Below the pieces are notes generated by a model. That model did no database searches. It was not told where the DNA came from and saw nothing but the letters and a program-made list of their open reading frames with translations. Below, one piece after another: positions 41,562 through 62,842 of a stretch of DNA of 64,000 nt. The position numbers and the translations under genes were made by a program. Positions within the stretch are counted from its first letter, which is position 1, and each line of letters begins with the position of its first letter. The stretch spans positions 73,474 to 137,473 of the forward strand of contig CAYFKJ010000003.1 in assembly GCA_964343605.1 (NCBI GenBank), read 5' to 3'. Origin of the DNA: an uncultured Rhodospirillaceae bacterium (GTDB lineage: Bacteria; Pseudomonadota; Alphaproteobacteria; UBA2966).

Positions 41562-43463
41562 ATGGTCGAACTCCTGCAAATTCACGAACCGGGCGAGACG
41601 CCTTTGCCCCATGCCGGCGAGGAGGTCGCCGTCGGCATCGATCTCGGCACGACGAACTCGTTGATCGCCATCGCCCACGACGGTGAGCCCGAGGTTCTGC
41701 GCGGTCCGGACGGCAAAACGCTGATCCCCTCCGTCGTCGCCTATGGCGACGGTGAGGCGGTGGTGGGTGAGGGCGCCCGGCGCGTCATCATGGATAGCCC
41801 GGAACGTGTCGTGTCGTCCGTGAAGCGGCTGATGGGCCGTGGCCTCGAGGACCTCAAATCGCTGGGCGGCGCCGTGCCCTACGATGTCGACGCCGATATG
41901 GAATCCGGCGGCATGGTCCGCCTCAACGTGGCGGGTCATCGCCTGACGCCGGTGGAAGTTTCATCGCACATCCTCGGCGCGCTGAGGGCTTTGGCCGAGG
42001 CCTCGCTCGACCGCACCATCGACAAGGCCGTAATCACCGTTCCCGCCTATTTCGACGACGCCGCGCGGGCGGCCACCAAGGATGCCGCCAAGCTCTGCGG
42101 TCTCCAGGTTCTACGGCTGGTTAACGAGCCGACGGCGGCGGCGCTGGCGTATGGACTGGATAAGGACGCCGAGGGGCTGTACGCGGTCTACGATCTGGGT
42201 GGCGGCACCTTTGACATTTCCATCCTGCGCATGGAGATGGGCGTCTTCCAGGTTCTGGCGACCGGTGGCGATGCCCAGTTGGGCGGCGACGATTTCGATC
42301 ACGCCGTGGCCACGCACTTCCTCGGCCAGCGCGAAGACCGGCCCGCGGATGCCAAGATTTCCCCGGGCGAAGCCAAAACCGCCATGATGACGGCCCGCCT
42401 GGTCAAGGAATGCCTGACCGATCAGGAGCAGGGCCGCTGGATGCTCGACGTCGAGGGTGAGGCGACCTGGCACGAACTAGACCGCGCGAAATTCGAGGAC
42501 CTGATCGGCGACATTGTCGATCGCACGATTAGCCTGTGCCGCGGCGTCATGGACGACGCCGACGTCTTCCCCGAGGACATCAAGGGCGTTGTCCTGGTTG
42601 GTGGCTCGACCCGGGTCCCGCTTGTCCGCAAGCGCGTTGCCGAACTGTTCGGCCAAAAGCCGCTTTCCGATATTGATCCGGATCAGGTCGTGGCTCTTGG
42701 TGCCGCGCTTCAAGCCGAGGCCCTGACGATGGGGTCAAACGCGCTGCTGCTGGACGTCACGCCTTTGTCGCTGGGTATCGAAACCATGGGCGGGCTGGTC
42801 GAAAAAGTCGTTCACCGCAACACGCCGATCCCCGTGGCCCGGGCCCAGGAATTCACAACCTACAAGGACGGCCAGACGGCCATGGCCATCCACGCCGTTC
42901 AGGGCGAACGCGAGATGGTCGACCAGAACCGCTCGCTGGCGCGCTTCGAGTTGCGCGGCATCCCGGCCATGGCGGCGGGAGCGGCGCGCATCCTGGTAAC
43001 CTTCGCGGTCGATGCCGATGGATTGCTGACCGTCAGCGCCGTCGAACAGAGCACCGGCATGGAAGCCCATGTCGAGGTCAAACCGAGCTACGGCCTGTCG
43101 GACGACGATATGGCACGGATGCTGCGGGAAAGCATGGAATTCGCGCGCGACGACATGACGGCGCGCCTGTTCGCCGAAGCCTGCGTCGAGGCTGAGCGCA
43201 TGCTGTTGGCTTTCGACGCGGCGCTGGAGTTGGACGGCGATCTCGTGAAGTCCGAGGAAAAAGAGGAAATCGAAGCCAGGATTACCGAATTGCGCGAAGC
43301 GATGGAGGGTGACGACCGGGATGCCGTGAACGGGGCAGTCGAAGCGTTGAACGCCGCAACCGAACCCTTCGCCGCGCGCCGTATGGATCGCCAGATCAGG
43401 GGGGCGCTGACCGGCGTTGCCATCGACGAACTGAATGAAGATGCCGAGATCGGCGAAGTGTAA
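41562..43463 (+). CDS. hscA: Fe-S chaperone HscA (Hsp70 family)
   Basis: [21 protein letters not shown] and [12 protein letters not shown] motifs. Confidence 0.92.
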
Positions 43464-43588
43464 TTTTGCGGCGATCAGTCGCACATAACCGGGCTGGTAA
43501 TTGCCCGCCGTCCGCGCTATGTCGTACCGCTGTTTTGTAATCTGCCCCCGGCCTGTTTCGTGCCGCTACATGTTTTCGGAGTTTGCTC

Positions 43589-43924
43589 GTGCCTAAGATG
43601 ACTTTCATCGATCCGCAGGGAAATGCCAAGGAGGTCGACGCACCTCTCGGTCTTTCGGTACTGGAGATCGCCCACCGCAACAAGATCGACCTGGAAGGGG
43701 CGTGCGAGGGGTCGCTGGCCTGTTCGACGTGCCACGTCATCGTCGACGACGAGTATTTCGACGACCTGCCCGAAGCGACCGAGGACGAGGAAGACATGCT
43801 GGACCTGGCCTTCGCCCTGACGCACACCTCGCGGCTGGGTTGCCAGATCATCATTACCGAAGAACTGGACGGACTGACCGTGACCTTGCCGGCGGCCACG
43901 CGCAATATGATGGTGGACGCCTGA
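43589..43924 (+). CDS. fdx: [2Fe-2S] ferredoxin, ISC type (adrenodoxin-like)
   Basis: [12 protein letters not shown]...SRLGCQI. Confidence 0.88.
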
Positions 43925-43944
43925 CGACAACGAAAGGGGGCGAC

Positions 43945-44145
43945 ATGCAGCTTAAGTGGACCGACGTCAACGATATCGCGATTGAGCTGGAAGACGCCCA
44001 CCCGGACGTGGATGTCGTCAATCTGCGCTTCACCGACCTGCACCGCTGGGTCACCGAACTGCCCGAATTCGACGACGATCCCAACCGCTCCAACGAAAAA
44101 ATCCTCGAGGCCATCCAGATGGCCTGGCTCGACGAGCGCGACTAG
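43945..44145 (+). CDS. iscX: Fe-S assembly protein IscX (YfhJ)
   Basis: 66-aa acidic protein MQLKWTDVNDIAIELEDAHPDVDVVNLRFTDLHRWV. AAGGGGG RBS. Confidence 0.8.
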   Translation: MQLKWTDVNDIAIELEDAHPDVDVVNLRFTDLHRWVTELPEFDDDPNRSNEKILEAIQMAWLDERD

Positions 44146-44148
44146 TCT

Positions 44149-44964
44149 GTGGCCCGCAGCCCGCAGGAGATCCAGGACACCACCCGCTTCATCGACGTCT
44201 ACCGGCGTGCCCAGGCGCCTGCCATGTTGGACGTCGAGGAAATCGCCTGCGGCTGCCGTTACGGCGCCACGAGTTGGGCGACCCTTGACGAGGTCCGGGC
44301 GATCGCCCGACTGCTCGACCTGGGACCCGGCAGGAAGCTCCTGGAAATCGGAGCCGGGTCCGGCTGGCCTTCCCTGCAACTTGCCGAAAGAAGCGGGTGC
44401 GATGCGGTTCTGACGGATCTCCCCATCTCCGGCATTCAGATTGCCGGTGAGAGGGCGCGGGCTGACGGCTTGAGCCATCGGTGTTTTGGCCTGCTGGCGG
44501 ACGGATCTCACCTGCCTTTCGCCGAGGCCGCATTCGATGCCGTTCATCACGCGGATGTTCTTTGCTGCTTGAAGTCGAAGCGGGAGGTTCTGAGGGAGTG
44601 CCGGCGCATCATGCGGTCTAACGGCAGAATGGCTTTCTCCGCGATCTTCATGGCGGCGGAATTGGCGCCAACCGAAACCGAACTCGCCGTCGCCGCCGGA
44701 CCGCCGTTCATGGAGATGAAAGGGACATATCCGACGCTTATGACGGAAACCGGCTGGCGACTGGTGGAAACTCATGATTTGACGGACGCCTTCCTCTCCA
44801 CGGCCGAGCGCCTGGTGGTGGAGGAAGAGGCGCGGGCGGCCGTTCTTGAACCGCTTCACGAAAAGGGCGAGTTCAACGCCCGCTTGAACCGCCACCGCGC
44901 CAAGATCGAGGCTCTCGGACAGGGTCTGATCCGGCGCGAATTGTATATCGCCGAACCTGTCTAA
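44149..44964 (+). CDS. class I SAM-dependent methyltransferase
   Basis: SAM motif I LLEIGAGSGWPSL. It starts 3 nt after the iscX stop. Confidence 0.6.
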   Translation: MARSPQEIQDTTRFIDVYRRAQAPAMLDVEEIACGCRYGATSWATLDEVRAIARLLDLGPGRKLLEIGAGSGWPSLQLAERSGCDAVLTDLPISGIQIAGERARADGLSHRCFGLLADGSHLPFAEAAFDAVHHADVLCCLKSKREVLRECRRIMRSNGRMAFSAIFMAAELAPTETELAVAAGPPFMEMKGTYPTLMTETGWRLVETHDLTDAFLSTAERLVVEEEARAAVLEPLHEKGEFNARLNRHRAKIEALGQGLIRRELYIAEPV

Positions 44965-45012
44965 GGGTCCCGAAACGGGCTATCATTCGCCGGAACCAAC
45001 CCTTGGGGGGGA

Positions 45013-46695
45013 TTGATGATCGCGCGCATTCGGCTTTATTCCGGCATGGTCCTGCTGGTTTTCGTCACGGGACACCTGTTCAACAGTTCGCTGGGCGTCT
45101 TCTCGTTCGAAGCGATGGATGCCGCATCCCAGTTCACGACCCGCCCCTGGCGCACGATTCCAGGCACCGTTCTTCTGCTCGGCGCCTTCCTGACGCATAC
45201 CACCCTGTCGATGAGGTCGCTGTTTTTTCGTCAAACGCTGAGGATGAAACCCTGGGAGGCCACCCAGAATATTTTGGGCATCCTCATTCCCTTATTGGCG
45301 TTCGGTCATGTCATTGCCATGCGCGGTTTGGTCGAGTTCATGGGTTTGAAAACCGGGTACGCCCTGGAAATGGTCGCCCTGTTCGTGGTGCGTCCGGATT
45401 TCGGCGCGATCCAAGTGGGGCTCGTCCTGCTTACCTGGATTCACGGCTGCATCGGTTTGCACACCTGGGCCCGCCTGAAACCGGGATACCAGAAATTCCA
45501 AGGCTGGGTACTCTCGCTGGCTGTCGCCTGGCCCGTCATGGCGTTGTCCGGCTATGTCGCGGCAGGGAACCGGGCGCAGCGGATGGTGGCGGACGAGGAA
45601 TGGCTCGGCGGCGTCATCAAGACCTCCGGTTTCAACGACGAAATGTTTGCGGCGGCCCTTCAATGGAACATCAATTTCTGTATTGGATATTTGGTATTGC
45701 TGGCGCTTCTGTTCGGCGCCCGCTGGATCCGGCTGGCCATCGCCAAGCGTGAAACGCCGATGGTCTTGCATTACCAGGGCGGTCGGGAGATCACCGCCAT
45801 ACCCGGCGCCACGGTTCTGGAATCGCTGCGGGCCGGCGGTATCCCACATGCCTCCGTGTGCGGCGGACGCGGGCGCTGCTCAACCTGCCGTATCCGCGTG
45901 GGGCGCGGCGCGGACTGGCTCAATCCCCCGGATGAAAACGAGGTCAAAGTATTGGAGCGCATTGCGGCGCCACCGTCGGTGCGGCTGGCCTGCCAGGTGC
46001 GGCCCAAGGTCGATCTCGAAATCGCGCCGCTCTTGTCGCCCGAGGCAACCGCGTCCGACGGCTTCGAACAGCCGGGTTACCTGGCGGGGCAGGAGGTCGA
46101 GGTCGCCTTCGTGTTCGTCGACCTGCGCGGCTCGACCGGGCTATCGGAAGGACGCCTGCCCTACGACTTCGTCTTCGTGCTCAACCAGTTTTTCGCCGCC
46201 ATCGACGGCGCGCTGCAGGAAACCAACGGCCATTACGCCCAGTTCAACGGCGACGGCCTGATGGCGATCTACGGTTTGAACTCGGGCATCGAACAGGGCG
46301 CCCTGGAAGCCGTTCAGGGTGCCCAGGCCATGATGCGCCGCATCGCCGAATTGAACGAACGCTTGAAAGCCGAGCTACCGGCGCCCTTGGCCATCGGAAT
46401 CGGCATCCACAGCGGCGAGGCCATTGTCGGTAGCATGGGGCCGCCCGACCATCCGATTATTTCGGCCATCGGCGATCACGTGAACATCGCCGCCCGCCTG
46501 GAAGCCAAGTGCAAGGACTTCGGCGTGCCGCTGATCGTCTCGGCCATCACGGCGGAGAAAGCCGGCGTCGACCTCGGCGGATTCCAACAGGAAACCGTCG
46601 ATGTCCGCGGCCGCGACGGCAATATCCGCATCTGGGTGATCGACGATCCTTCGAAAATCGATCTTGCGAAGACGAAAGAAACGGTGCCCGCCTGA
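45013..46695 (+). CDS. membrane-anchored class III adenylate/guanylate cyclase with an internal [2Fe-2S] ferredoxin domain
   Basis: Six-helix hydrophobic N-terminus with conserved His residues in the helices. A plant-type Fer2 module (CGGRGRCSTCRIRV...LACQV). A CHD cyclase domain (FVFVDLRGSTG; NGDGLMAIYG; IGDHVNIAARLE). Confidence 0.8.
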   Translation: MMIARIRLYSGMVLLVFVTGHLFNSSLGVFSFEAMDAASQFTTRPWRTIPGTVLLLGAFLTHTTLSMRSLFFRQTLRMKPWEATQNILGILIPLLAFGHVIAMRGLVEFMGLKTGYALEMVALFVVRPDFGAIQVGLVLLTWIHGCIGLHTWARLKPGYQKFQGWVLSLAVAWPVMALSGYVAAGNRAQRMVADEEWLGGVIKTSGFNDEMFAAALQWNINFCIGYLVLLALLFGARWIRLAIAKRETPMVLHYQGGREITAIPGATVLESLRAGGIPHASVCGGRGRCSTCRIRVGRGADWLNPPDENEVKVLERIAAPPSVRLACQVRPKVDLEIAPLLSPEATASDGFEQPGYLAGQEVEVAFVFVDLRGSTGLSEGRLPYDFVFVLNQFFAAIDGALQETNGHYAQFNGDGLMAIYGLNSGIEQGALEAVQGAQAMMRRIAELNERLKAELPAPLAIGIGIHSGEAIVGSMGPPDHPIISAIGDHVNIAARLEAKCKDFGVPLIVSAITAEKAGVDLGGFQQETVDVRGRDGNIRIWVIDDPSKIDLAKTKETVPA

Positions 46696-46708
46696 TGGGA
46701 GTAATGCC

Positions 46709-46993
46709 ATGCTGTTCATGGTGATCGAGACCTTCCGCGATCAGAATGCCAAGGCGGTCTACGCGCGCTTCCGGGAGAAGGGGCGCATGTTGCCGGCGGG
46801 TCTGGAATTCGTGGACTCCTGGGTCAGCGCCGATCTTGGCCGCTGTTTCCAGGTCATGGCTTGCGAAGACGTCGCGTTGCTGCAGCAGTGGGTGACGAAC
46901 TGGTCCGACCTCGTCGAGTTCGAAATCGTGCCGATCGTGCCCGGATCCGACGCCGCCAAGGCTGTTCAAGCAAGCGAAAGTGAACGGGCTTGA
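46709..46993 (+). CDS. DUF3303-family small protein
   Basis: Starts MLFMVIETFRD. GGGAG RBS. Confidence 0.5.
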   Translation: MLFMVIETFRDQNAKAVYARFREKGRMLPAGLEFVDSWVSADLGRCFQVMACEDVALLQQWVTNWSDLVEFEIVPIVPGSDAAKAVQASESERA

Positions 46994-47069
46994 TCGCCAT
47001 TGCCCACCCGGCGCGGCCAGATTTCTGATACTTTACCTGCAACGAATCCAATATCGGGCGAGGTCCGGC

Positions 47070-47270
47070 ATGTTGCGAATAGCATTGCTTTGGCTTGGTC
47101 TGTCTGTCCTGACCGGCTGCATGTCCGTGCAGATGGGTAAGGGGAATTACGAACAAGCCGATCACGATCGGTGTATCGGACGCGGGTTCGAGGCCGATTC
47201 CCAAAACTATAAGGATTGCCGCCTGACGATCGCCAAAAGGCGGAGTGTCGGCATGGAGCCGGGTGTCTAG
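47070..47270 (+). CDS. small putative lipoprotein (66 aa)
   Basis: Signal plus lipobox MLRIALLWLGLSVLTGC. GAGGT RBS. The ORF is short, so confidence is low. Confidence 0.3.
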   Translation: MLRIALLWLGLSVLTGCMSVQMGKGNYEQADHDRCIGRGFEADSQNYKDCRLTIAKRRSVGMEPGV

Positions 47271-48472
47271 ACCACACCGTCTTTCTTGAGGGTGGCGATG
47301 TCGTCGTCCGAGCGGCCCAGTTCGCGCAGGATCGCTTCCGTATCACCTCCGTGAAGGGGGGCGGGGCGGTTGAGCGGCCCGTCGCGGTCCGCTTGATAAC
47401 CGCCGGAGAGGATGACGGCGGGGTCGGCGGCGATGCCGTCGGGCAGTGGAGCCTCGACCAGCCGTTGGCCGGCCGCAAGCTGCGGGTCACTGACGACCTC
47501 GGGAACCGTGCGCACCCGTCCGCAGGGGATACCGGCGTCCCTTAAACGGGACTCCCAATTTTCCGCGGTATCGGCTGCGAGGGCATCGCGGATTTCCGCC
47601 TCGATGAAATCCCGATTTTGCATGCGGGCGTCAGTGGTGGCACAGCGCTCGTCTGCCGCCATTTCAGCGCGTCCGATAATCTTGAACAAACTCGCCACTT
47701 GGGCGTCGCTAATGGCGGTGATCAGGAGGGGGTCGCTCGCCGTGGGAAAAAGATTGTCGGTCGGCAGGCCGGCCTCGGTGCGGTTGCCGTTGCGGCCCGG
47801 CAGGTGGCCGCCGTTGGCGTAGTTCATGATCTGCGGCGCCATGAGATGCAGCGCACCGTCGAGCAGCGAGGCATCGATAAACTGTCCCTCGCCTGTGGCC
47901 TGCCTGCGCAAGAGGGCAGAGAAAATGGCGGTCGCCGCCATGGCACCGGCGTACATGTCAATGGCCATGATGCCGAGACGCGTGGGATCGCCGTCTGCAA
48001 ATCCGTTGACGGACATGATGCCGGTGTCCGCCTGCAGGGGACCGTCGTAGGCGGCAAGGCCCGCCTTCGGCCCGGTCTGGCCGTAGCCGCTGATGGCGCA
48101 CCAGATCAGCCCAGGATTGCGCGCCCTGCATTTTTCGGGATCGAGACCTAACCGGGTCATAACGCCGGGCCGGAAATTGTCGACCACGACGTCTGCCCGG
48201 TCGATCAGGTCCCGGGCTACGGCAACGCCCTCCGCCGACTTGAGGTTCAACGAGAGGCTTCGCTTGCCGCCGTTAAGATATTGAAACATTGGCGAAATTC
48301 GGTGTTCGGCAAAGGCGCCTTCGGCCATGATGCCGCGCATGATGTCACCGCCGTTCGGCGTTTCAACCTTGACCACATCGGCGCCGTGAAGTGCCAGTTG
48401 CCGTGTCGCCGCCGGCCCGGCGATGATCTGCGTGAAATCGACGACGAGTACGCCGTCCAGGGAATGGGGCAT
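47267..48472 (-). CDS. CoA-transferase family III (CaiB/BaiF)
   Basis: VLVVDFTQIIAGPAATRQLALHGADVVKVE N-terminus. ~400 aa. Confidence 0.85.
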   Translation of the reverse strand: MPHSLDGVLVVDFTQIIAGPAATRQLALHGADVVKVETPNGGDIMRGIMAEGAFAEHRISPMFQYLNGGKRSLSLNLKSAEGVAVARDLIDRADVVVDNFRPGVMTRLGLDPEKCRARNPGLIWCAISGYGQTGPKAGLAAYDGPLQADTGIMSVNGFADGDPTRLGIMAIDMYAGAMAATAIFSALLRRQATGEGQFIDASLLDGALHLMAPQIMNYANGGHLPGRNGNRTEAGLPTDNLFPTASDPLLITAISDAQVASLFKIIGRAEMAADERCATTDARMQNRDFIEAEIRDALAADTAENWESRLRDAGIPCGRVRTVPEVVSDPQLAAGQRLVEAPLPDGIAADPAVILSGGYQADRDGPLNRPAPLHGGDTEAILRELGRSDDDIATLKKDGVV

Positions 48473-48482
48473 TTATTCGACC

Positions 48483-50231
48483 CTACTCGAGGCCGGCCAG
48501 CCTCAAGCCCTCGATGAGTTTGTCGAGATCTTCCTTGACTGCATAAGGCTGGGTCGCCTCGATCAGTGCCAGCGTGCTGTCGGGATAGAGGGCTTTGTAC
48601 CGATCCATGACCTCGCGGGCTTCATCGATCCTACCCAGTTGGGCAAGTGCAGCGCTTTTGACACGATAGGCGCCGGGAAAATCGGGCCGGTCCTGCAGTG
48701 CCAGATCCATACATCTGGAGGCTTCCTCGTACTGGCCGCCAACGAAATGCGCGACCGCCTTCGACGCCACGAAATAGGGCACCTGGGGATCCCTTGGGCT
48801 GAGGCGCAGGGCCTGTTCGATGTCGGCCAAGGCGTCGTCACAGTTCCCGCCGAATCCTTTTGCTAAACCCCGATAGCCGAAAGCGGTGGCGCTGTTGGGG
48901 TTGAGATCGAGCGCGCGGGTCAGTTCGCTGATGGCGCCGTCGGGATTGCGGTGCATCATCTGCAGATAACCTAGCGCGATGTGCGCCCAGGAATCCCGCT
49001 CGTCCATGACCGCGGCCTTCCGCGCCAGGCGTTCGGCTTCATCCAATTCGGGTTCCCTGGCGCGCCAACCCATATGAATGGAAACGATGTACATGAAGGC
49101 CAGCGCGCTGCTGGCGAACGAAAGATCGGGGAAGTCTTCGACGACTTTACGCATCAGCCGGATGGCTTCGTCGGTATCGGCTTTGTTCAGCAGCCAAAAA
49201 TGCGTCCGCGCCTTCATCAGGGTTTCCCAGGCCGAAATCTGCGAAGGATCACGCTTGGAGGCGTTGTGTCCCTCCAGGGCGAAGACCTCGGGCTCGACGG
49301 CCGCCGCGATATTGCGGGTGATTTCGTCCTGCAGGTCGAAGATATCGACGACCTGCCGGTCGAAGCGCTCAGCCCATACGTGATTGCCGGAGCTGCCCTC
49401 GATCAGCTGAACGTTGATGCGCATGCGGTCGCCGGATTTGCGCACGCTGCCCTCGATGACGTAGCGGACGTCGAGTTCCTTCGCCACTTCGGCGACGTTT
49501 ACCGCCCGGCCCTTGTAGGTAAACGTGGTGTTGCGCGCGATCACCGTCATCCAGCGATTGCGCGAAAGTTCGGTGATGATGTCCTCGGTGACACCATCGA
49601 CGAAATATTCCTGTTCCGGATCCCCGGACATATTGTCGAACGGAAGGACAGCGAGTGAAGGCTTGTCGGATGTAGCAGACGAGGCTGTTTCCGCAACGGG
49701 GTCGGGCACTGGTGTCTCGGGCTTCGCAATCGAAACGCCGTAAACCCTGACCGGGGCGGACACATGCTTGACCTCATGCTCGCCGAGGTCTTCGAACTCG
49801 TAATCCAGCCGGTTCCGCACCTGTTCGAAGACGCCGCCGGAAATACAGACGGCGCCCGGTTCCGCCAGAGCCTCGATGCGGGCGGCGATGTTGACGCCTT
49901 CGCCGTGGATGTCTTCGCCGTCGTCGATGATGTCGCCGAGGTTGACGCCCATGCGGAAATCCAACTGGCTTCCAGCCAGCCCCTGCTGCATGTCGACGGC
50001 GCAAGTTACGGCGTTCTGCACGGTCGGGAATTCCGCCAGAAAACCGTCGCCTGTGTGTTTCACAATACGTCCGGAATGATTGTCGATTATGGGATCGATG
50101 ACGTCGGAGCGAGCTGCCTTCCAGGCGGCAACGGTGCCGTCCGTGTCTTGCTCCATAAGACGTGTGTAGCCCACGACGTCAGCCGCCAAAATCGCCGACA
50201 GCCGCCGCGCGTCACCACCCCCTTCACTCAT
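48483..50231 (-). CDS. adenylate/guanylate cyclase (class III) fused to a TPR/BTAD-like regulatory domain
   Basis: N-terminal CHD (ADVVGYTRLME...HTGDGFLAEF...GVNIAARIEALA) and C-terminal TPR helices. Start taken at MSEGGG with a GGGGGA RBS. Confidence 0.8.
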   Translation of the reverse strand: MSEGGGDARRLSAILAADVVGYTRLMEQDTDGTVAAWKAARSDVIDPIIDNHSGRIVKHTGDGFLAEFPTVQNAVTCAVDMQQGLAGSQLDFRMGVNLGDIIDDGEDIHGEGVNIAARIEALAEPGAVCISGGVFEQVRNRLDYEFEDLGEHEVKHVSAPVRVYGVSIAKPETPVPDPVAETASSATSDKPSLAVLPFDNMSGDPEQEYFVDGVTEDIITELSRNRWMTVIARNTTFTYKGRAVNVAEVAKELDVRYVIEGSVRKSGDRMRINVQLIEGSSGNHVWAERFDRQVVDIFDLQDEITRNIAAAVEPEVFALEGHNASKRDPSQISAWETLMKARTHFWLLNKADTDEAIRLMRKVVEDFPDLSFASSALAFMYIVSIHMGWRAREPELDEAERLARKAAVMDERDSWAHIALGYLQMMHRNPDGAISELTRALDLNPNSATAFGYRGLAKGFGGNCDDALADIEQALRLSPRDPQVPYFVASKAVAHFVGGQYEEASRCMDLALQDRPDFPGAYRVKSAALAQLGRIDEAREVMDRYKALYPDSTLALIEATQPYAVKEDLDKLIEGLRLAGLE

Positions 50232-50316
50232 TACCAAATTCCCCCAAGTAAGCCCTCGGGGCGATTGTACGTCATCTGAAAGGCTGGTGCGACCCCGCGG
50301 GGAGCCGGGAAATCGG

Positions 50317-51141
50317 TCAATCGTCGGGCTTCCCGCCCAATTTTTCCTTGCGCAGGCGCTCCTCGTACTGGCCCACATAAGAGGTATGCGTCACCAGCCC
50401 GGTGGCTTCGTCCCAGGTATGGAGATAGACGGCGGGCGGTTCCATGACCAGCACCAATGGGGCGTCCTCGCCCATTTCGAGGCCGATCTGGTGGGCCGTG
50501 CTGGGCGCGACCGAGACACAAGTACCGGCCCAGCTAATGGTGATGGGCCGGTGCAGGTGGCCGGCGGTGACCCGCAGGACCTGGGGATGGCGCTGGACGA
50601 CCTCCATCATCGGCGTCGGGTTGTCGAAGCCGTGACGGTCCATGATCTCGATGCCGCTGGTGATCGGCGGGTGGTGCATGAAGATCAGCGTCGGGCGATC
50701 AGGTTCCGCCCCCAACGTGGCATCCAACCAGGCCAGGCGTTCGGTGCACATGGTACCGCCGATCTCGCCCTCGATCTGGGTGTCCAGCCCGACCAGGCGC
50801 AGCGGGTAATCCTCCAGGGCGTAGTGGATGAAGCCATCGGCCGGCAAATAGTCGTGATCGGGAAAGGCGGCTCTTAGATGCTTGCGGGAATCGTGGTTGC
50901 CGGGAATGACGTAGAGCGGCATGTCCAGCGGCGCGAAAAGCTCCCGCAAGACTTCGTATTCTTCCGGCTTGGCCCAGTCGACGAGGTCGCCGGTGGCGAG
51001 CACGACATCCGGCAGCGGGTCCATCGCCATGATATGGGCGACGGCCCGGGCCAGATGGTCGCAGGTCTGGTAGTTGCCGTCCGAATCCTTTCCACGCTCG
51101 GAAACGTGGAGGTCGGAAATTTGGGCGGCGATGAAGGTCAA
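50317..51141 (-). CDS. calcineurin-like metallophosphoesterase, class III cyclic-nucleotide phosphodiesterase (CpdA-like)
   Basis: The motif series D-x-H (ISDLHV), GDLVD, GNHD, HHPP and GHLH, with the spacing of CpdA/Rv0805-type PDEs. Confidence 0.65.
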   Translation of the reverse strand: MTFIAAQISDLHVSERGKDSDGNYQTCDHLARAVAHIMAMDPLPDVVLATGDLVDWAKPEEYEVLRELFAPLDMPLYVIPGNHDSRKHLRAAFPDHDYLPADGFIHYALEDYPLRLVGLDTQIEGEIGGTMCTERLAWLDATLGAEPDRPTLIFMHHPPITSGIEIMDRHGFDNPTPMMEVVQRHPQVLRVTAGHLHRPITISWAGTCVSVAPSTAHQIGLEMGEDAPLVLVMEPPAVYLHTWDEATGLVTHTSYVGQYEERLRKEKLGGKPDD

Positions 51142-52463
51142 TCCTTTTTCCTCAGATCGACGACACGCTGGGCCTTACCGATGGAACGCGGCACCGCGCC
51201 TTCCTCGCCGACGCGGACGTCCGCCGTGACGCCGACCATGGCCTTGATATGGTGGGCGACGTCCTTGGCGGCGGCGTCGGCGACGTCCTCCCAGCCCGCG
51301 CCGTAAAGTTCGGGCTTGAGCTCGGTGACCACGGCCAGCTTGTCGAGATTGCCGTCGCGGCTCACTTCCAACTGGTAGTGCGGCGCAATGTGGTCGTCCT
51401 TCAGCAGGATTTCCTCGATCTGCGAGGGGAAGACGTTGACGCCGCGAATGATCAGCATGTCGTCCGACCGGCCCGTAATCTTGGCCATGCGGCGGTGGGT
51501 GCGCGCCGTGCCCGGCTGCAGATGCGTAAGGTCACGCGTGCGGTAGCGCACGACCGGGAAGGCTTCCTTGGTGATGCTGGAGAACACGAGCTCGCCCTGT
51601 TCGCCGTCCGTCAGCACGTCGCCGCTGGCGGGATCGATGATCTCGGGCAGGAAGTGGTCCTCCCAAATGTGGAGCCCGTCCTTGGTCTCGATGCACTCGC
51701 AGGCGACGCCCGGTCCCATGACTTCCGACAAGCCATAGATGTCGACGGCGTCGATGCCCATGCGCGTCTCAATCTCCTCGCGCATGGCCGGCGTCCAGGG
51801 CTCGGCGCCGAAGATGCCGATGCGCAGGCAGGATTTTTTCGGATCAAGGCCTTGGGTTTCGTATTCGTCGGCGATCGAGAGCATGTAGCTTGGCGTCACC
51901 ATGATGACGCCGGCGCCGAAATCCTCGATCAGTTGCACCTGGCGCTCGGTCATGCCGCCCGACATGGGTACGACCGTGGCCTTCAGCCGTTCGGCGCCGT
52001 AGTGCGCGCCAAGACCGCCGGTGAAGAGGCCGTAGCCGTAGGCGTTGTGGATGATGTCGCCGGCCCGGGCGCCTGCCGCCCGCATGGAGCGCGCCATCAG
52101 GTCCGACCAGTTGTCGATGTCGTTCTGGGTGTACCCCACCACTGTCGGCTTGCCGGTGGTGCCGGAGGAGGCGTGAACGCGGATAACTTCCTCGCGCGGC
52201 ACGGCGAACATGCCGAAGGGGTAGTTGTCCCGAAGATCCGCCTTGGTCGTGAAGGGGAACTTGGCGATGTCCTCGAGATACTGGAAGTCGTCAGGGTGGA
52301 CACCAGCGTCGTCGTACTTCTTCTTGTAGAACGGCACGTTGGCATAGACGTGCCGCAGCGTCTTCCTCAAGTGTTCTGTTTGGACGGCCGCGATTTCATC
52401 GCGGCTTGCGGTTTCGATGGCCTCCATCTCGTCCTTTGTGGGGGCGCGGTTTTCCGCCAACAT
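51138..52463 (-). CDS. paaK: phenylacetate--CoA ligase
   Basis: Near-collinear match to PaaK: FPFTTKADLRDNYPFGMFAVP...HASSGTTGKPTVVGYTQNDIDNW...IIRGVNVFPSQIEE. Confidence 0.88.
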   Translation of the reverse strand: MLAENRAPTKDEMEAIETASRDEIAAVQTEHLRKTLRHVYANVPFYKKKYDDAGVHPDDFQYLEDIAKFPFTTKADLRDNYPFGMFAVPREEVIRVHASSGTTGKPTVVGYTQNDIDNWSDLMARSMRAAGARAGDIIHNAYGYGLFTGGLGAHYGAERLKATVVPMSGGMTERQVQLIEDFGAGVIMVTPSYMLSIADEYETQGLDPKKSCLRIGIFGAEPWTPAMREEIETRMGIDAVDIYGLSEVMGPGVACECIETKDGLHIWEDHFLPEIIDPASGDVLTDGEQGELVFSSITKEAFPVVRYRTRDLTHLQPGTARTHRRMAKITGRSDDMLIIRGVNVFPSQIEEILLKDDHIAPHYQLEVSRDGNLDKLAVVTELKPELYGAGWEDVADAAAKDVAHHIKAMVGVTADVRVGEEGAVPRSIGKAQRVVDLRKKD

Positions 52464-52481
52464 ATCGACTACTCCCTTTAA

Positions 52482-53684
52482 CTAAACCCGTTCGATGACG
52501 GCGGCGATACCCTGGCCGACGCCGATACACATGGTGCAGAGCGCCAACTTGGCGCCGTTGCGTTGTAATTGATAGGTCGCCGTGGTGGCGAGGCGGGCGC
52601 CCGACATGCCGAGGGGGTGGCCCAGCGCAATGGCGCCGCCCTGGGGGTTGACCCGTTCGTCGTCGTCCTCCAGTCCCCAGTCGCGCGTCACCGCCAGCCC
52701 TTGCGCGGCAAAGGCCTCGTTGAGCTCGATAACGTCAAGCTCGTCGAACTTGAGGCCCAAGCGGTTCAGCAGCTTGCGGGCAGCCGGTGCTGGTCCGAAG
52801 CCCATGATGCGCGGCGGTACGCCGGCATGACCCATCCCGAGCACGCGGGCACGCGGCGTCAGACCGTGTTCCTTGGCGGCCTCCTCCGAGGCGATGATCA
52901 GCGCGGCCGCGCCGTCGTTGACGCCGGAGGCATTGCCGGCGGTCACCGTGCCGCCTTCGCGGAAGGGCGTCGGCAGCTTGGCCAAGGCCTCCATGGAGGT
53001 CTCGCGCGGATGCTCGTCGGCCTCCACGACAACCGGGTCGCCTTTGCGTTTGGGAATGGTGACCGGCACGATTTCCTCAGCCAGGTTGCCGTTCTTCTGG
53101 GCGGCGGCGGCGCGCTGCTGACTGCGCAGCGCGAAGGCATCCTGATCCTCGCGCTGGATCTGGAACTCCTCCGCAACGTTCTCCGCCGTCTCCGGCATGC
53201 TGTCGACGCCGTATTGCTTCTTCATCAGCGGATTGATGAAGCGCCAGCCGATGGTGGTATCGAAAATCTCGGCCCGGCGCGAAAAGGCGGCGTCCGGCTT
53301 GGGGAGGATCATCGGCGCCCGGCTCATGCTTTCGGAACCACCCGCGACACAGAGGTCGGCCTCACCCGTCTTGATGGCCCGCGCCGCCTGTCCGACGGCT
53401 TCGAGGCCCGACCCGCAAAGCCGGTTGACGGTGGCGCCCGGCACGCTGTCCGGGATACCCGCCAGCAGGGAGGCCATGCGGGCGATATTGCGGTTGTCCT
53501 CACCCGCTTGGTTGGCGGCGCCGTAGAACACGTCGTCGACGCGCGACCAGTCCATGTCCGCATTGCGTGACATCAGCTCCTTGAGCGGCAGGGCGGCCAG
53601 ATCGTCGGCGCGAACGCTGGAGAGGGCGCCGCCGTACCGTCCGATGGGCGTGCGGACGGCGTCACAGATGTAGGCTTCGGTCAT
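52482..53684 (-). CDS. paaJ: 3-oxoadipyl-CoA / 3-oxo-5,6-dehydrosuberyl-CoA thiolase
   Basis: [34 protein letters not shown]...[10 protein letters not shown]...[20 protein letters not shown] matches PaaJ/PcaF. Confidence 0.88.
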
Positions 53685-53869
53685 TTCGGGGGGCTCCTTG
53701 TTCGTGCTTTTGCGGGCTCGGCACCTTCGTTGTGGACATTTTTGATGGGTAGGCCAACAATATCGCCGACAACATATCGATACATCGTTGCGGCGGCAAT
53801 CCTTCGAATCAACGGTTAGGATAGCCGAGCAACGTCCAAAATGGCAGTTACGAGTTAGGACCCCCCACT

Positions 53870-54475
53870 ATGGCAAACACCTATTCCTTCGAAGGCATGA
53901 TTCCCGTCATCAAACCGGGCGCCTTCGTCCATCCGACGGCCGTTCTGATCGGCGACGTCATCATCGACGAAGGGTGTTTCATCGGGCCGGGCGCCGCCTT
54001 GAGAGGCGACTTCGGGCGGATTGAGGTAGGCGTTGGCGCCAACGTTCAGGACAATTGCGTGGTGCACTCGTTTCCCGGCAAGACGGTCGTCATCGCCGAG
54101 GACGGCCACATCGGGCACTCGGCCGTCATTCACGGCTGCACCATCGGCCGCAATGCGCTGGTCGGCATGAACGCCACCGTGATGGATGACGCCGTCGTCG
54201 GCGAGGAAGCCATCATCGCCGCCAATTCCTTCGTCAAGGCGGGCTTCGAGGTGCCGCGGCGCACCCTGGCGGCGGGTTCTCCCGCCAAGATCCTGCGTGA
54301 GGTGTCGGACCAGGACGTTGCCTGGAAGTCCAGCGCGACGGCTCTTTACCAGGAATTGGCGCAGCGATCGCTGCAATCGCTCGTGGCGGCGCCGGCGTTG
54401 ACGGCGGAGGAAGAGAACCGCCCCCGCGCCCCCGAGCGCGAGGATATAAAGCCGCTGCACGCCTCTAAAAAGTAG
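53870..54475 (+). CDS. paaY: phenylacetic acid degradation protein PaaY (gamma-carbonic-anhydrase-like hexapeptide thioesterase)
   Basis: PTAVLIGDVIIDEGCFIGPGAALRGDFGRIEVG...GHSAVIHGCTIGRNALVGMNATVMD matches PaaY. Confidence 0.78.
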   Translation: MANTYSFEGMIPVIKPGAFVHPTAVLIGDVIIDEGCFIGPGAALRGDFGRIEVGVGANVQDNCVVHSFPGKTVVIAEDGHIGHSAVIHGCTIGRNALVGMNATVMDDAVVGEEAIIAANSFVKAGFEVPRRTLAAGSPAKILREVSDQDVAWKSSATALYQELAQRSLQSLVAAPALTAEEENRPRAPEREDIKPLHASKK

Positions 54476-54491
54476 ATCGCTGGAGGCCTCT

Positions 54492-55151
54492 ATGACTACC
54501 GCGCTCAGCCACGAACAAGCCCGCCGTTTCTATGACGGATATGGCGCCAAGCAGGACGGCCAGGGGTTTTATGAAGACGCGGCGCTCGATCTTTTGATCG
54601 AACACGGCGATTTTGCACAAAGCCGCTCGGTCCTGGAAATCGGCTGCGGTACGGGGCGGTTCGCCGCCCGCCTGCTGTCGGATCACCTGCCGCCGTCCGC
54701 CCGATACACCGGCATTGACGTCAGCTCGACCATGGTGGAATTGAGCCGGGAACGGCTGCAGCCGTGGGCCGAGCGTTGCACCATCCATCATACTGACGGC
54801 GGCTTTGATTTCGCGTCCCTTGGCGGGCCGTTCGACCGCATCGTCAGCACCTATGTTTTCGACCTGCTGAGCGAATCCGATGTCGGCGAAGCGATGGCGG
54901 CGGCGCGACGGGTCTCGACGATGGGGGGGCGCCTTTGCCTGGCCGGGTTGTCGAAAGGCATGGGGCCGGTTTCCAACCTGTCGAGTGGGCTCTGGACCCT
55001 GGCCTACAAGATCAGCCCGTGGTTCGTCGGGGGCTGCCGTCCGATGGACCTCACCGCCCTGCTGCCACGCGATCAGTGGGCCGTCCGCCATCACGAAATT
55101 ACCGTCAGCACGACGATCCCTTCGGAAGTTTTATTGGCGGAGGCGGTATGA
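54492..55151 (+). CDS. class I SAM-dependent methyltransferase
   Basis: VLEIGCGTGRFAARLL motif I. Confidence 0.7.
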   Translation: MTTALSHEQARRFYDGYGAKQDGQGFYEDAALDLLIEHGDFAQSRSVLEIGCGTGRFAARLLSDHLPPSARYTGIDVSSTMVELSRERLQPWAERCTIHHTDGGFDFASLGGPFDRIVSTYVFDLLSESDVGEAMAAARRVSTMGGRLCLAGLSKGMGPVSNLSSGLWTLAYKISPWFVGGCRPMDLTALLPRDQWAVRHHEITVSTTIPSEVLLAEAV

Positions 55152-55612
55152 CCGCCATCTACGTGGACGCCGATGCCTGTCCGGTAAAGGACGAGGCGGT
55201 CCGCGTGGCCGCACGCCACGGTTTGAAGACCTACATGGTGAGCGATGGCGGTATCCGGCCCAGCCGAGATCCGTTGGTTGAATTGGTAATCGTACCGCCG
55301 GGAGCGGATGCTGCCGATGACTGGATCGCCGAGAACATCCAGGCCGCCGATATCTGCGTCACCAACGATATCCCGCTGGCAGCGCGCTGCCTGGAGGCGG
55401 ATGCGTTCGCCCTCAAGCCTAACGGCGAGGCGTTCACGGAAAGCGGCATCGGCATGGCCCTGGCCAACCGCGAACTGATGCAGGACCTGCGCGAGCGCGG
55501 CGAGATTACGGGTGGACCGAGGCCGTTCAGCAAGGCCGACCGATCGGCCTTTCTCAACCGCTTGGAAACCACTGTGCAAGCTGCAAAAAAACAAACAAAA
55601 TCATATACTTAA
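55148..55612 (+). CDS. YaiI/YqgV-family (UPF0178/DUF188) protein
   Basis: MTAIYVDADACPVKDE... is typical of the family. ATGA overlap with the upstream gene. GGAGG RBS. Confidence 0.7.
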   Translation: MTAIYVDADACPVKDEAVRVAARHGLKTYMVSDGGIRPSRDPLVELVIVPPGADAADDWIAENIQAADICVTNDIPLAARCLEADAFALKPNGEAFTESGIGMALANRELMQDLRERGEITGGPRPFSKADRSAFLNRLETTVQAAKKQTKSYT

Positions 55613-55677
55613 TCGAATTTTCGCTTCCTTAACCCCCAAACCCTATAATTGAACGATCCGGTCCGGAGAATTCGTAA

Positions 55678-56268
55678 TTGGGGGAATCCTTCATGGATAG
55701 CACGACTGTCATCATCGTCGTCGTCGTCGTTCTGGCGCTGATCTATCTCTGGTACGCAACCATCATCCGCCGCCGGAATAAGGTTCTGGAAGCTCTTTCG
55801 GGGATCGATGTGCAACTCAAGAAGCGCTCCAATCTCATCCCCAACATTCTCCAAATCGCCCGGAAGTTCATGGAACACGAAAAGGGCCTGTTGACCGAAA
55901 TCACCGAGCTGCGGGAGCAGGTCGATCGTGATTACGATCCGAAGGACGCGGAGGCAGTGAAGGGGCACTTGGCGCTGGCCGGGGAACTCGCCGGCAAGGT
56001 GGGCGGGCTGATGGTAAGAGTTGAGGACTATCCTGAGCTCAAATCCCAGGAAACCATGATCAAGGCGCAGCTCACCTACAATGAAGTCGAAGCCCAGATC
56101 GCGGCGGCGCGGCGCTTCTACAACGCCTCGGTCGCCGGCCTCAACAATTCGGTCCAGATTTTCCCGGGCAATCTCATCGCCGGCCTCGCCGGCGCCGCTG
56201 TGATGCCGTTTTTCGAAGCGGACGAAACCTCCAGGGCGCCGGTCAACGCCGCCGATCACCTGGGCTAG
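55678..56268 (+). CDS. LemA-family protein
   Basis: N-terminal TM helix then RRRNKVLEALSGIDVQLKKRSNLIPNI... LemA signature. Confidence 0.85.
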   Translation: MGESFMDSTTVIIVVVVVLALIYLWYATIIRRRNKVLEALSGIDVQLKKRSNLIPNILQIARKFMEHEKGLLTEITELREQVDRDYDPKDAEAVKGHLALAGELAGKVGGLMVRVEDYPELKSQETMIKAQLTYNEVEAQIAAARRFYNASVAGLNNSVQIFPGNLIAGLAGAAVMPFFEADETSRAPVNAADHLG

Positions 56269-56277
56269 CTCCACGCC

Positions 56278-57387
56278 ATGGTGTTGCGCCCGTTGCACTG
56301 GTGGCGCCTGGCCGGCGAAATCGAAGTGCCGGTCAAGGAGATCTTCCTCGGCATGTTGGGGCTGTTCGCTGGACGGGGGCTGAAACCCTTCTCGGGCGAA
56401 CTCAATTTCCGCCGTGTCGAGGGTATCGACGAACCGTTCGCGCCGCTTTACGAGCGCGACATCCGACCAAAGGTTCAGGTCTTCGAGTCGCAGCGCGTCG
56501 CCGCAGTCCGATCACTTGCGCTCCGGTTGTTCGTATCGAGCGTCGTCTTGATCGGCGCCATCGCCACGATCATCTACACCGACGGTCTAAATCAGAAAGG
56601 TGTCATTAGCGACGACACCCAAGGCATCATTATCTGGATCGGCATCGGGATCATGCTGTTCCTGTTCTGGTGGACGTTCCGGCCGGTGAGCAAGTACAAA
56701 TCCTCGGTCAAGTCGGAGATCTATCCGCTCATCTTCAAGTACTTCGGCAAGGATTTCACCTACAAGGAAGAGGGCCCCTTGAGTGCCCGATCCGTGAAGG
56801 ATTCCGGGATCATCCCGAATTTCGAGGATGAAGCGCGCGAGGATTATGTGCGCGGCACCTGGAAGGGTGTTCGGCTTGAGCTGACCGAAACAAAACTGAC
56901 CGTGGAGCACGGCAGCGGCGAGGACAGCCGGACGGAAACCAAGTTTCGCGGCCTCCTTATCCTTCTCACCATGAACAAGAAGTTCTCGGGGCGCACCGTT
57001 ATCAAGCGTGACCTGACCATGGTCTTCAACTGGTTCGCGGACAAGTTCGAACGGGAGCTCGAAAACGTCAAACTGGAGGATCCCAGGTTCGAACGCGAAT
57101 TCGAGGTTTATTCGTCGGATCAGGTTGAAGCCCGGTACCTGCTGACGCCCACGTTCATGGAACGGCTGATGGAACTGACCGAGGCCTTCGGCGGCAAGCC
57201 GATCCAGGCCTGTTTTTTCAAGAACAAACTGCTGCTGACCATCAAGACGAACAAGGACCGGTTCGAAACCGGATCCATCTTCCGGCCCGCCACCTTCGCC
57301 AAGGAGATCGATACGGTGCTGAAGGAAATGCCGGCGATCTTCAAAATCGTCGAGGTTCTGAAGCTCGACCAGAAGATCGGGCTGTGA
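56278..57387 (+). CDS. LemA-associated membrane protein (DUF3137-like)
   Basis: Two TM helices followed by a ~250-aa soluble domain, immediately downstream of LemA. Family assignment is tentative. Confidence 0.45.
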   Translation: MVLRPLHWWRLAGEIEVPVKEIFLGMLGLFAGRGLKPFSGELNFRRVEGIDEPFAPLYERDIRPKVQVFESQRVAAVRSLALRLFVSSVVLIGAIATIIYTDGLNQKGVISDDTQGIIIWIGIGIMLFLFWWTFRPVSKYKSSVKSEIYPLIFKYFGKDFTYKEEGPLSARSVKDSGIIPNFEDEAREDYVRGTWKGVRLELTETKLTVEHGSGEDSRTETKFRGLLILLTMNKKFSGRTVIKRDLTMVFNWFADKFERELENVKLEDPRFEREFEVYSSDQVEARYLLTPTFMERLMELTEAFGGKPIQACFFKNKLLLTIKTNKDRFETGSIFRPATFAKEIDTVLKEMPAIFKIVEVLKLDQKIGL

Positions 57388-57388
57388 C

Positions 57389-57895
57389 ATGCCGCCGGGG
57401 TATCAAATCAGGGTCGCGAAGCCGTCCGATGAAGCCGGCGTAACCGATTTTCTCCAGCTTTCGTACCCCGTGCTGATGGGCTCCAGTTACGAGGAGACCT
57501 TATTGGCGGTGGCTTTGCCGTTGATGACACGTGCCAATCCCGGTTTGCTCGAATCGGGGACCTATTACGTGGCGGTGGGCGAGGGCGGCCGGATCGTCGG
57601 CAGCGGCGGCTGGACCCGGGAGCGGCCCGGAACGGGCGAGATTATCGAAGGCTTGGCACACATCCGGCATTTCGCCGTTCATCCGGACTGGACGCGCCAA
57701 GGCATCGCACGGGCGATCTATGACCAGTGCGAAGCGGCAGCCAGGGCGTCGGGCTTCGGGCGCTTCGAGTGCTACTCCAGCCTCAACGCGGAAGGGTTTT
57801 ACGCCGCCCTGCGATTCAAGCGAATCCGTCCGGTCGTCGTGCCGATGGGGGAGGGTATCGAATTTCCCGCCATCCTCATGGAGCGGGATATCTAG
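57389..57895 (+). CDS. GNAT-family N-acetyltransferase
   Basis: Acetyl-CoA binding region RQGIARAIYDQCEAAARASG. Confidence 0.75.
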   Translation: MPPGYQIRVAKPSDEAGVTDFLQLSYPVLMGSSYEETLLAVALPLMTRANPGLLESGTYYVAVGEGGRIVGSGGWTRERPGTGEIIEGLAHIRHFAVHPDWTRQGIARAIYDQCEAAARASGFGRFECYSSLNAEGFYAALRFKRIRPVVVPMGEGIEFPAILMERDI

Positions 57896-58080
57896 TTCCT
57901 TTCAGGTTGGTGCCTACATCGGATCCGGGCCCCGGGAGATACTGCCGCCAGTCATAAACCGTTTCCTTTCCGCCAATGGGTGGCGGTGCAAGGCGTGGAC
58001 GCCCCGCAACTGCCGAACTATTGCCGTGCCACGAAAATATCCGGTACCGCCGATGTCGGGCGCAACGCCACCATCAATTT

Positions 58081-58310
58081 CTGAAATATGAACGCGGGCG
58101 GATATTTGTTTTCGAAATTTGAATAGAATATTTGAAATTTCCACTACTTAAGATACTGTTGAAAAAATTTAATCTTAAAAAAAGACGGTGATTACAATTG
58201 TATGCACGCTAAAATGGCGAAAATGGAATTGCCGTCACCGAACTTAAGTTGCTTAACTGCGGAACAAAACTTAGGAAAAACTGAAGTAAAAAAACTAAAC
58301 AAATAGGGAA
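58081..58310. promoter_or_regulatory. AT-rich (~30% GC by eye) promoter/boundary region of the low-GC island
   Basis: An abrupt compositional drop relative to the ~65% GC flank. Contains TTTGAAAT-type repeats and the palindrome GAAATTTC. Confidence 0.4.
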
Positions 58311-58871: not shown

Positions 58872-58887
58872 ATGGTGTGAGGAAAAA

Positions 58888-60285: not shown

Positions 60286-60336
60286 AAATTCGCTTCCCAA
60301 ATAAAACCAAGAACAAAACGAATAGAGGTTCGGCTG

Positions 60337-61134: not shown

Positions 61135-61177
61135 GGCATTGACCTGATTCGGATCTTCTTCGAGGAGAGCGTGCCAT

Positions 61178-62764: not shown

Positions 62765-62842
62765 GCGGGACACGGGTTGTCGACCGCCTCGTCTTACCCC
62801 GCTGGATCAGGCTCAGCATTTTCGCGCCGACTTAGGAGGTCG

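Follow-up and report, generated by a model that had tools for sequence, protein, structure and literature searches.

A lineage-specific gene cluster joining paaJ and paaK to a metallophosphodiesterase and a class III adenylate cyclase in an uncultured Rhodospirillaceae bacterium

Background

The canonical phenylacetate (paa) genes of Escherichia coli are arranged as paaZ, paaABCDEFGHIJK and paaXY. In many bacteria, and above all in marine Alphaproteobacteria, the paa clusters are fragmented, and a 2026 survey of paa clusters, in which neither a cyclase nor a phosphodiesterase is mentioned, describes PaaY as markedly scarce in Alphaproteobacteria (PMC13186573). The present work deals with a 64-kb stretch of DNA from an uncultured Rhodospirillaceae bacterium (contig CAYFKJ010000003.1 of assembly GCA_964343605.1), the whole of which is called the window here. 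Of the E. coli Paa proteins only PaaJ, PaaK and PaaY have homologues in these 64 kb and, unlike in the E. coli operon, three non-paa genes follow paaJ and paaK in the same direction. Their products are a metallophosphodiesterase (PDE), a TPR-repeat adenylate cyclase of class III (AC-TPR) and a coenzyme A (CoA) transferase of family III. A literature search for paaK, a cyclase and a phosphodiesterase in one operon found no such report. An original prediction, made from the letters of the DNA alone, had seen in this arrangement a cyclase and its cognate phosphodiesterase coupled to phenylacetyl-CoA formation, with a hint of second-messenger control. The comparison with related genomes described below leads us to favour, on balance, a different description, namely an evolutionarily young mosaic operon established on an older paaJ-PDE pair, at least part of which probably forms a single transcription unit.

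The closest described arrangement of a cyclase and a phosphodiesterase is cyaD1-spdA of Sinorhizobium meliloti, where, as in the window, an alphaproteobacterial class III metallophosphodiesterase (SpdA, SMc02179) is encoded beside a class III cyclase, although that locus differs in its CHASE2 receptor cyclase, its Clr regulator and its lack of paa genes (PMC4222275). SpdA had been predicted to be a cyclic AMP (cAMP) phosphodiesterase because of the adjoining cyclase gene, cyaD1; nevertheless, its activity on 3',5'-cAMP was undetectable and it hydrolyses 2',3'-cyclic nucleoside monophosphates (cNMPs), substrates which Rv0805 of Mycobacterium tuberculosis also favours about 150-fold (PMC4222275). 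In general, the specificity of class III phosphodiesterases is not predictable from sequence (PMC4222275), and the SpdA precedent is a caution that such an enzyme adjoining a cyclase is no evidence of cAMP specificity. A further relative, the glycerophosphodiesterase GpdQ of Enterobacter aerogenes (PDB 2dxl, 2zo9 and 3d03), does not hydrolyse cAMP (PMC3535393). Among cyclases, CyaC of S. meliloti, a redox-regulated class III enzyme with six transmembrane segments of the di-haem-B type (PMC10463352), resembles a second cyclase of the window in its architecture.

Identity and order of the cluster genes

The genes of the cluster and the divergent gene upstream of it are the following, with the best family matches in brackets.

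53870-54475, plus strand: paaY-like hexapeptide-repeat protein of the PaaY/CaiE type, 201 amino acids (aa), divergent from the cluster
52482-53684, minus strand: paaJ/pcaF, 3-oxoadipyl-CoA thiolase, 400 aa (PRK09050, 730.8 bits, cutoff 605; TIGR02430, 706.3 bits, cutoff 597)
51138-52463, minus strand: paaK, phenylacetate-CoA ligase, 441 aa (NCBIfam TIGR02155, 703.7 bits, cutoff 646.3)
50317-51141, minus strand: PDE, a class III-type, GpdQ/SpdA-like metallophosphodiesterase, 274 aa (PF00149, 64.2 bits)
48483-50231, minus strand: AC-TPR, class III adenylate cyclase, 582 aa (PF00211, 34.7 bits, cutoff 21.9, and several TPR families)
47267-48472, minus strand: family III CoA transferase, 401 aa (PF02515, 367.7 bits, full-length, profile positions 1-366 of 366)

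The predicted five-gene order on the minus strand, with paaY divergent from it, was recovered from the open reading frames (ORFs) and the family searches, and all components of the cluster are members of known families. PaaJ and PaaK pass the cutoffs of their equivalog models and are 67% and 64% identical, respectively, to their E. coli counterparts by tblastn. The paaY-like protein shows 55% identity with E. coli PaaY across 191 aa, scoring 266.8 bits on the PaaY model TIGR02287, which is under the cutoff of 319.6 and almost equal to its CaiE score. For the CoA transferase no NCBIfam equivalog was reached, the best model being succinate-glutarate CoA-transferase (245.8 bits against a cutoff of 750).

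When the junctions were read directly, the expected spacings of 18, -4, 85 and 10 nucleotides (nt) were found. The 18-nt gap between paaJ and paaK contains an AGGGAG Shine-Dalgarno-like sequence, and the 4-nt overlap of paaK with the PDE gene reads TTGA, not the ATGA first proposed, because the PDE start codon is TTG. The PDE gene and the cyclase gene are separated by 85 nt, the latter starting with an ATG at 50231, in agreement with the NCBI gene call and with the lengths of homologues, and 10 nt lie between the cyclase stop and the CoA transferase. Identical cluster proteins with identical gene starts are present in an NCBI record on a contig of 659,140 bp.

Thirteen E. coli K-12 Paa proteins and part (about 80%) of PaaZ were used as tblastn queries against the 64-kb window (E<=1e-3). 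Only PaaJ, PaaK and PaaY gave matches; PaaA to PaaI, PaaX and the part of PaaZ used gave none, which agrees with the announced absence of paaABCDE, paaFGHI and paaX from the window. The window thus holds no complete paa operon, with paaABCDE and paaFGHI, paaZ or paaX in the same cluster, and Pfam and NCBIfam scans of its remaining ORFs detected housekeeping genes only and no further paa genes. Taken together, the gene identities, the junctions and the tblastn results confirm the original observation with small corrections.

Distribution of the cluster in related genomes

Synteny in relatives, the check proposed along with the original prediction, gave a divided answer. A PDE homologue search returned 4598 matches, and the full five-gene order was found, besides the window, only in L001 (GCA_964401845) and L009 (an uncultured Rhodospirillaceae metagenome-assembled genome), with identities of 82-99% for the six cluster proteins; a 3.9-kb contig, L002, carries the paaJ-paaK-PDE part and the start of a downstream gene. 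Across the three genomes the six genes that run from paaY to the CoA transferase show a synonymous divergence (dS) of about 0.5-0.8, and hscA and the CyaC-like cyclase one of about 1.0, while the ratio of nonsynonymous to synonymous divergence (dN/dS) is 0.02-0.14 for every gene, that is, all of them are under purifying selection. The order retained over this divergence, together with the low dN/dS values, means that the arrangement is stable and its genes are functional.

The sister lineages, in which the PDE is 56-58% identical, lack paaK, AC-TPR and the CoA transferase. L004, L007 and the P0005 contig have only a divergent paaY followed by a paaJ-PDE pair, and in L006 a thiolase gene lies immediately before that of the PDE; thiolase and PDE genes are only 13-14 nt apart in L004, L006 and L007, and on the P0005 contig 91 nt separate them. 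This conserved unit sits beside the isc operon, and in L004 and L007 the PDE gene is directly convergent with that of a 559-568-aa protein with Fer2 and cyclase domains which closes the operon. The adjacency of paaY and paaJ is kept in L001, L004, L007, L009 and the P0005 contig. A paaY homologue is found beside paaJ across the whole PDE-linked clade, and in the window itself, despite the alphaproteobacterial host. In a neighbour-joining tree the thiolase-linked PDEs form one clade, whose sister, P0015, is adjacent to isc genes and has no thiolase; the PDE homologues linked to ATP-binding cassette (ABC) importers branch outside this clade, and the tree has GpdQ, 32% identical, as outgroup.

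A more distant set comprised 79 further genomes with a PDE 44-55% identical, and 1.3 Mb of flanking DNA in all. No thiolase, paaK or CoA transferase was detected within 6 kb of the PDE in any of the 79, nor was a class III cyclase domain within 10 kb of it, so that cyclase-PDE adjacency was not seen to recur in independent lineages. For about 25 of the 79 homologues the gene closes an operon for an ABC importer, made up of a substrate-binding protein, a permease and an ATPase that show kinship with the 2-aminoethylphosphonate transporter PhnS/T/V at scores below the cutoffs; such loci include L034, L042, L046, L050, L053, L066-L071, L073, L075, L077, L078, L080 and L084-L088. This context, which is absent from the thiolase-linked clade of the window PDE, suggests for most of the PDE family a role in phosphodiester or phosphonate scavenging. 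Moreover, the order AnmK...cysE-Rrf2-nifS-fdx...PDE in L095 is the same as that of the window, which makes the PDE an old resident of the isc flank.

In these comparisons, the conserved partner of the PDE is paaJ/paaY, and not a cyclase or paaK. The older core would have been a divergent paaY and paaJ-PDE at the end of a conserved AnmK-cysE-isc block, adjoining a CyaC-like cyclase; the lineage of the window has, in addition, paaK between paaJ and the PDE gene, with the TTGA overlap, and AC-TPR and the CoA transferase behind the PDE gene. By parsimony, the present tree gives equal standing to a gain of paaK and AC-TPR in the lineage of the window and to their loss in the sister clade. Since the adjacency is limited to one narrow lineage, the cyclase and the PDE are better seen as neighbours through recent juxtaposition than as a conserved cognate pair. 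The cognate coupling first proposed is thus left unsupported, and only co-expression would tie cAMP to phenylacetate catabolism, if the two are linked at all.

The phosphodiesterase

The PDE has the fold and the full motif set of class III cNMP phosphodiesterases (D-Xn-GD-Xn-GNH[E/D]-Xn-H-Xn-GHXH). Its motifs D10/H12, G51-D52, G81-N82-H83-D84, H156/H157 and G194-H195-x-H197 recur without change in 30 homologues, and the metal ligands D10, H12, D52, N82, H156/157, H195 and H197 are all intact. With CpdA/Icc of E. coli and Pseudomonas aeruginosa and with Rv0805 it has in common the superfamily and the motif set D..GD..GNHD..H..GHxH, and only at this level is the label CpdA-like given to it at first appropriate. 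The protein is not, in turn, assigned to the CpdA equivalog, since it reaches 110.7 bits on the NCBIfam model PRK11148 against a cutoff of 225, with 28% identity to E. coli CpdA. The best NCBIfam model was SpdA (NF050112), also without equivalog assignment (158.8 bits against a cutoff of 400).

Comparison with proteins of known structure pointed in a similar direction. Among PDB sequences the best match was GpdQ (128.8 bits), with Rv0805 reaching 72 bits, and the AlphaFold model of the PDE (predicted local distance difference test, pLDDT, 90.9) had GpdQ as its top Foldseek match, superposing along its entire length with a TM score of 0.87 and a root-mean-square deviation of 1.9 A over 261 columns; on Rv0805 the TM score was 0.73-0.83, under that of GpdQ. 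GpdQ is equal in length to the PDE and has the same seven metal ligands, the identity between the two being only 29-32%. These features predict that the PDE is active as a binuclear metallophosphodiesterase like GpdQ, SpdA and Rv0805, the substrate of which, be it a 3',5'-cNMP, a 2',3'-cNMP or another diester, is not readable from sequence; that 3',5'-cAMP should be the main one is rather doubtful.

The cyclase with TPR repeats

AC-TPR consists of an N-terminal catalytic domain, a conserved middle domain, labelled TolB-like in the JGI source annotations of its homologues, and C-terminal TPR repeats. The tail had been described as TPR/BTAD; the TPR families were detected by Pfam, and BTAD (PF03704) was not at E<=0.001. 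The residues D18, K58, D62, R93, D107, N114, R118 and K155 show no variation among 16 homologues, and the set which marks a class III adenylate cyclase (two metal-binding Asp, a Lys/Asp pair, Asn and Arg) is complete. By what is established for class III cyclases, D18 and D62 bind the metals, K58 and D107 specify ATP, and N114 and R118 stabilise the transition state. The best PDB match was 3mr7 (139 bits). AC-TPR is accordingly a canonical enzyme by its residues and very probably makes 3',5'-cAMP from ATP, an activity that would be controlled by the middle and TPR domains.

The family is a very large one of paralogues, with at least 8000 homologue matches and variable neighbours. Among the matches listed, the closest non-syntenic homologues (75%, 62% and 58% identity) have unrelated neighbours, with no PDE and no paa genes. 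At the locus of the 75% homologue (L090, 6899-9734), a metallo-beta-lactamase (MBL)-fold hydrolase is encoded 121 nt upstream, with precomputed Pfam annotations that include Anti-Pycsar Apyc1. This protein was considered as a non-orthologous replacement of the PDE and rejected: the Apyc1 match is partial and below its cutoff (27.1 bits against 50), and it is therefore a generic MBL protein, not evidence for a cNMP phosphodiesterase partner.

Probable control regions and co-transcription

Two non-coding segments of the cluster are conserved:

53732-53778, minus strand: block in the paaY-paaJ intergenic region, GATATGTTGTCGGCGATATTGTTGG...AAAAATGTCCAC, also given as GATATGTTGTCgGcGATATTGTTGG...AAAATGTCCAC
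50232-50316, minus strand: PDE-cyclase spacer of 85 nt, with the hexamer TACAAT (50264-50269), which precedes the cyclase ATG by 32 nt

The block at 53732-53778 is kept in the window, L009, L004 and L007, and the remaining spacer diverges. It has a near-direct repeat, GATAT(G)TTGT, and contains a sigma-70-like match, TGGACA-17-AACAAT (53733-53761, plus strand). It is probably a control region shared by paaY and paaJ, that is, a divergent promoter/operator for a regulator. Transcription from this region would give a paaJ-paaK-PDE mRNA, and AC-TPR and the CoA transferase would depend on read-through of this transcript or on a separate promoter within the 85-nt spacer. An alignment of the window, L009 and L001 showed that the 3' half of that spacer, including GTACAATCG, is conserved, and the TACAAT within it, which was unflagged by the consensus promoter scan, is a hint of a separate cyclase promoter.

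The consensus promoter and terminator scans gave matches at chance level and no site inside the gaps of the cluster. The tight, co-directional spacing and the lack of a terminator- or promoter-like site in the gaps make co-transcription plausible, at least for paaJ, paaK and the PDE gene, which are likely to share one transcript. The strong suggestion of co-transcription in the original prediction is supported for this part, and is tempered by the conserved TACAAT as regards the cyclase. No RNA element was found in the spacers with Rfam (E<=1, over 44000-58000).

A CRP/Clr-type operator in the paaY-paaJ spacer was also considered and rejected: the pattern TGTGA-N6-TCACA, with up to two mismatches, matched 4 times in the window against 14.4 expected by chance, the only match near the cluster lies within the paaJ coding sequence, and the block at 53732-53778 has no CRP-type box. 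Neither were cNMP-binding regulators detected in Pfam and NCBIfam scans of the window ORFs.

Weighing of the alternatives

Several points weigh against a young mosaic. The tight packing, including the overlap of start and stop codons, has been kept across three diverged genomes, as expected of a functional operon, and co-expression may therefore be selected and not accidental. The PDE stands beside a cyclase in most of the clade loci examined (a CyaC-like one in L004 and L007, both kinds in the window), and this proximity could reflect a real cAMP link; in addition, cyaD1-spdA of S. meliloti shows that a class III phosphodiesterase beside a cyclase is a recurrent arrangement in Alphaproteobacteria (PMC4222275). 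The negative results for paaABCDE and for CRP/Clr homologues cover the 64-kb window, the neighbour-joining tree carries no support values, and the evidence from the sister clade comes from few loci.

Next to the young mosaic operon, the explanation that survives best is that AC-TPR and the PDE, perhaps with the CyaC-like cyclase, form a dedicated cAMP module, co-transcribed with paaJK, in which cAMP and phenylacetate catabolism control each other. Such a module agrees with the co-directional, tight spacing without predicted terminators, with the canonical catalytic residues of AC-TPR, with the intact active site of the PDE in its class III superfamily, with the proximity of a cyclase to the PDE in the window, L001, L009, L004 and L007, and with the purifying selection on the arrangement; moreover, the paa promoters of E. 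coli reportedly require cAMP-CRP. On the other hand, PDE-AC-TPR adjacency occurs in one narrow lineage only, no cyclase lies within 10 kb of the PDE in the 79 other loci, the AC-TPR homologues examined have other neighbours, neither a CRP box nor a cNMP-binding protein was found nearby, and the TACAAT of the 85-nt spacer suggests a separate cyclase promoter. The nearest characterised relatives of the PDE, GpdQ and SpdA, are likewise without 3',5'-cAMP hydrolysis (PMC3535393, PMC4222275). The module as a whole is for these reasons unlikely, and a dedicated cAMP circuit tied to phenylacetate catabolism distinctly so.

A bolder extension, which we consider quite improbable, is that the thiolase-linked PDE clade is a new functional subfamily, driven by the paaJ promoter and acting on cAMP made by the adjacent CyaC-like and AC-TPR cyclases. 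If true, cAMP would be reset locally and directly whenever the phenylacetate/beta-ketoadipyl-CoA branch is induced, and a catabolic operon would carry its own second-messenger writer and eraser instead of a CRP site.

Still less probable is a housekeeping function, in which the PDE would be a 2',3'-cyclic nucleotide phosphodiesterase like SpdA and Rv0805, clearing products of RNA breakdown with no role in signalling. SpdA is the best NCBIfam model of the PDE, ahead of CpdA, and SpdA itself, likewise adjacent to a cyclase, proved to be 2',3'-specific, while Rv0805 has the same strong preference (PMC4222275). Nevertheless, the SpdA score is far under its equivalog cutoff, the specificity of the class cannot be predicted in this way (PMC4222275), and the conserved coupling to paaJ would be left unexplained.

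The weakest proposal, that the PDE acts with PaaJ and PaaY on a phosphodiester other than a cyclic nucleotide (for instance a CoA-related or another metabolite diester) and the cyclase is an unrelated passenger, can draw on the paaJ-PDE bicistron with divergent paaY as the only clade-wide conserved association, on the promiscuity of GpdQ as the nearest solved relative and on the importer operons of the wider family, and is very improbable given that no paa or beta-ketoadipate step is known to need a phosphodiesterase, that the clade shares its whole isc-flanking synteny, so that adjacency can persist by descent alone, and that the evidence names no candidate substrate.

The second cyclase and the surroundings of the cluster

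The neighbouring features of the window are the following.

45013-46695, plus strand: second class III cyclase (Fer2-AC), 559-560 aa, convergent with the cluster, after the isc operon (PF00111, 36.7 bits; PF00211, 51.3 bits)
46664-46993, plus strand: DUF3303 small protein between the cluster and Fer2-AC, start codon uncertain (PF11746, 110.4 bits; also called in L001)
44149-44964, plus strand: methyltransferase gene, overlapped by an antisense ORF at 43396-44895

Fer2-AC, the CyaC-like cyclase mentioned above, did not appear in the original prediction. Its His-rich membrane domain (about 240 aa) is followed by a 2Fe-2S ferredoxin domain and then by a class III cyclase domain, and a 100% identical protein of 559 aa (P0241) comes from an NCBI source. 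The nearest PDB entry to its cyclase domain is 2w01. CyaC of S. meliloti reportedly also has a binuclear Fe-S cluster. Fer2-AC differs from CyaC in its purine-specifying pair, which is Gln/Ser and not Lys/Asp, making its product nucleotide uncertain, and in its location behind the isc genes, which is lineage-specific. A general link between CyaC-like cyclases and isc genes was considered and rejected, as homologues 72% and 52% identical lie in unrelated contexts.

The window is core chromosome, with genes for RNase E, PBP1A, RF2, GlnE, TyrRS and AnmK, followed by cysE, the isc genes (a nifS-like cysteine desulfurase, iscS, iscU, iscA, hscB and hscA), the methyltransferase gene and Fer2-AC. The antisense ORF at 43396-44895 (minus strand, 499 aa) has no family match and also overlaps the place at which an fdx/iscX-type protein is encoded in relatives; in all likelihood it is a spurious ORF of the kind typical of high-GC DNA. 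Further along, an island of low GC content at about 58000-62800 (0.49-0.51, against about 0.62 elsewhere) encodes a 465-aa protein without family match, a ParA-like ATPase with a KGGVGR motif (60337-61134) and a 528-aa HD-domain protein (61178-62764). PADLOC gave only a weak, partial match on it (PDC-M28B), and the island may have been acquired horizontally.

Significance

As the evidence stands, the main value of the locus is cautionary: a class III phosphodiesterase beside a cyclase does not by itself speak for cAMP specificity, and the arrangement of the two behind paaJ and paaK is lineage-specific. If the two enzymes do work jointly with paaJK, the cluster would be one of the few catabolic operons to encode their own synthesis and degradation of cAMP, and it would offer a handle on the function of the AC-TPR cyclases, a very large and almost uncharacterised family of Alphaproteobacteria. 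The most testable and least expected element of the locus is the conserved paaJ-PDE bicistron beside the isc operon.

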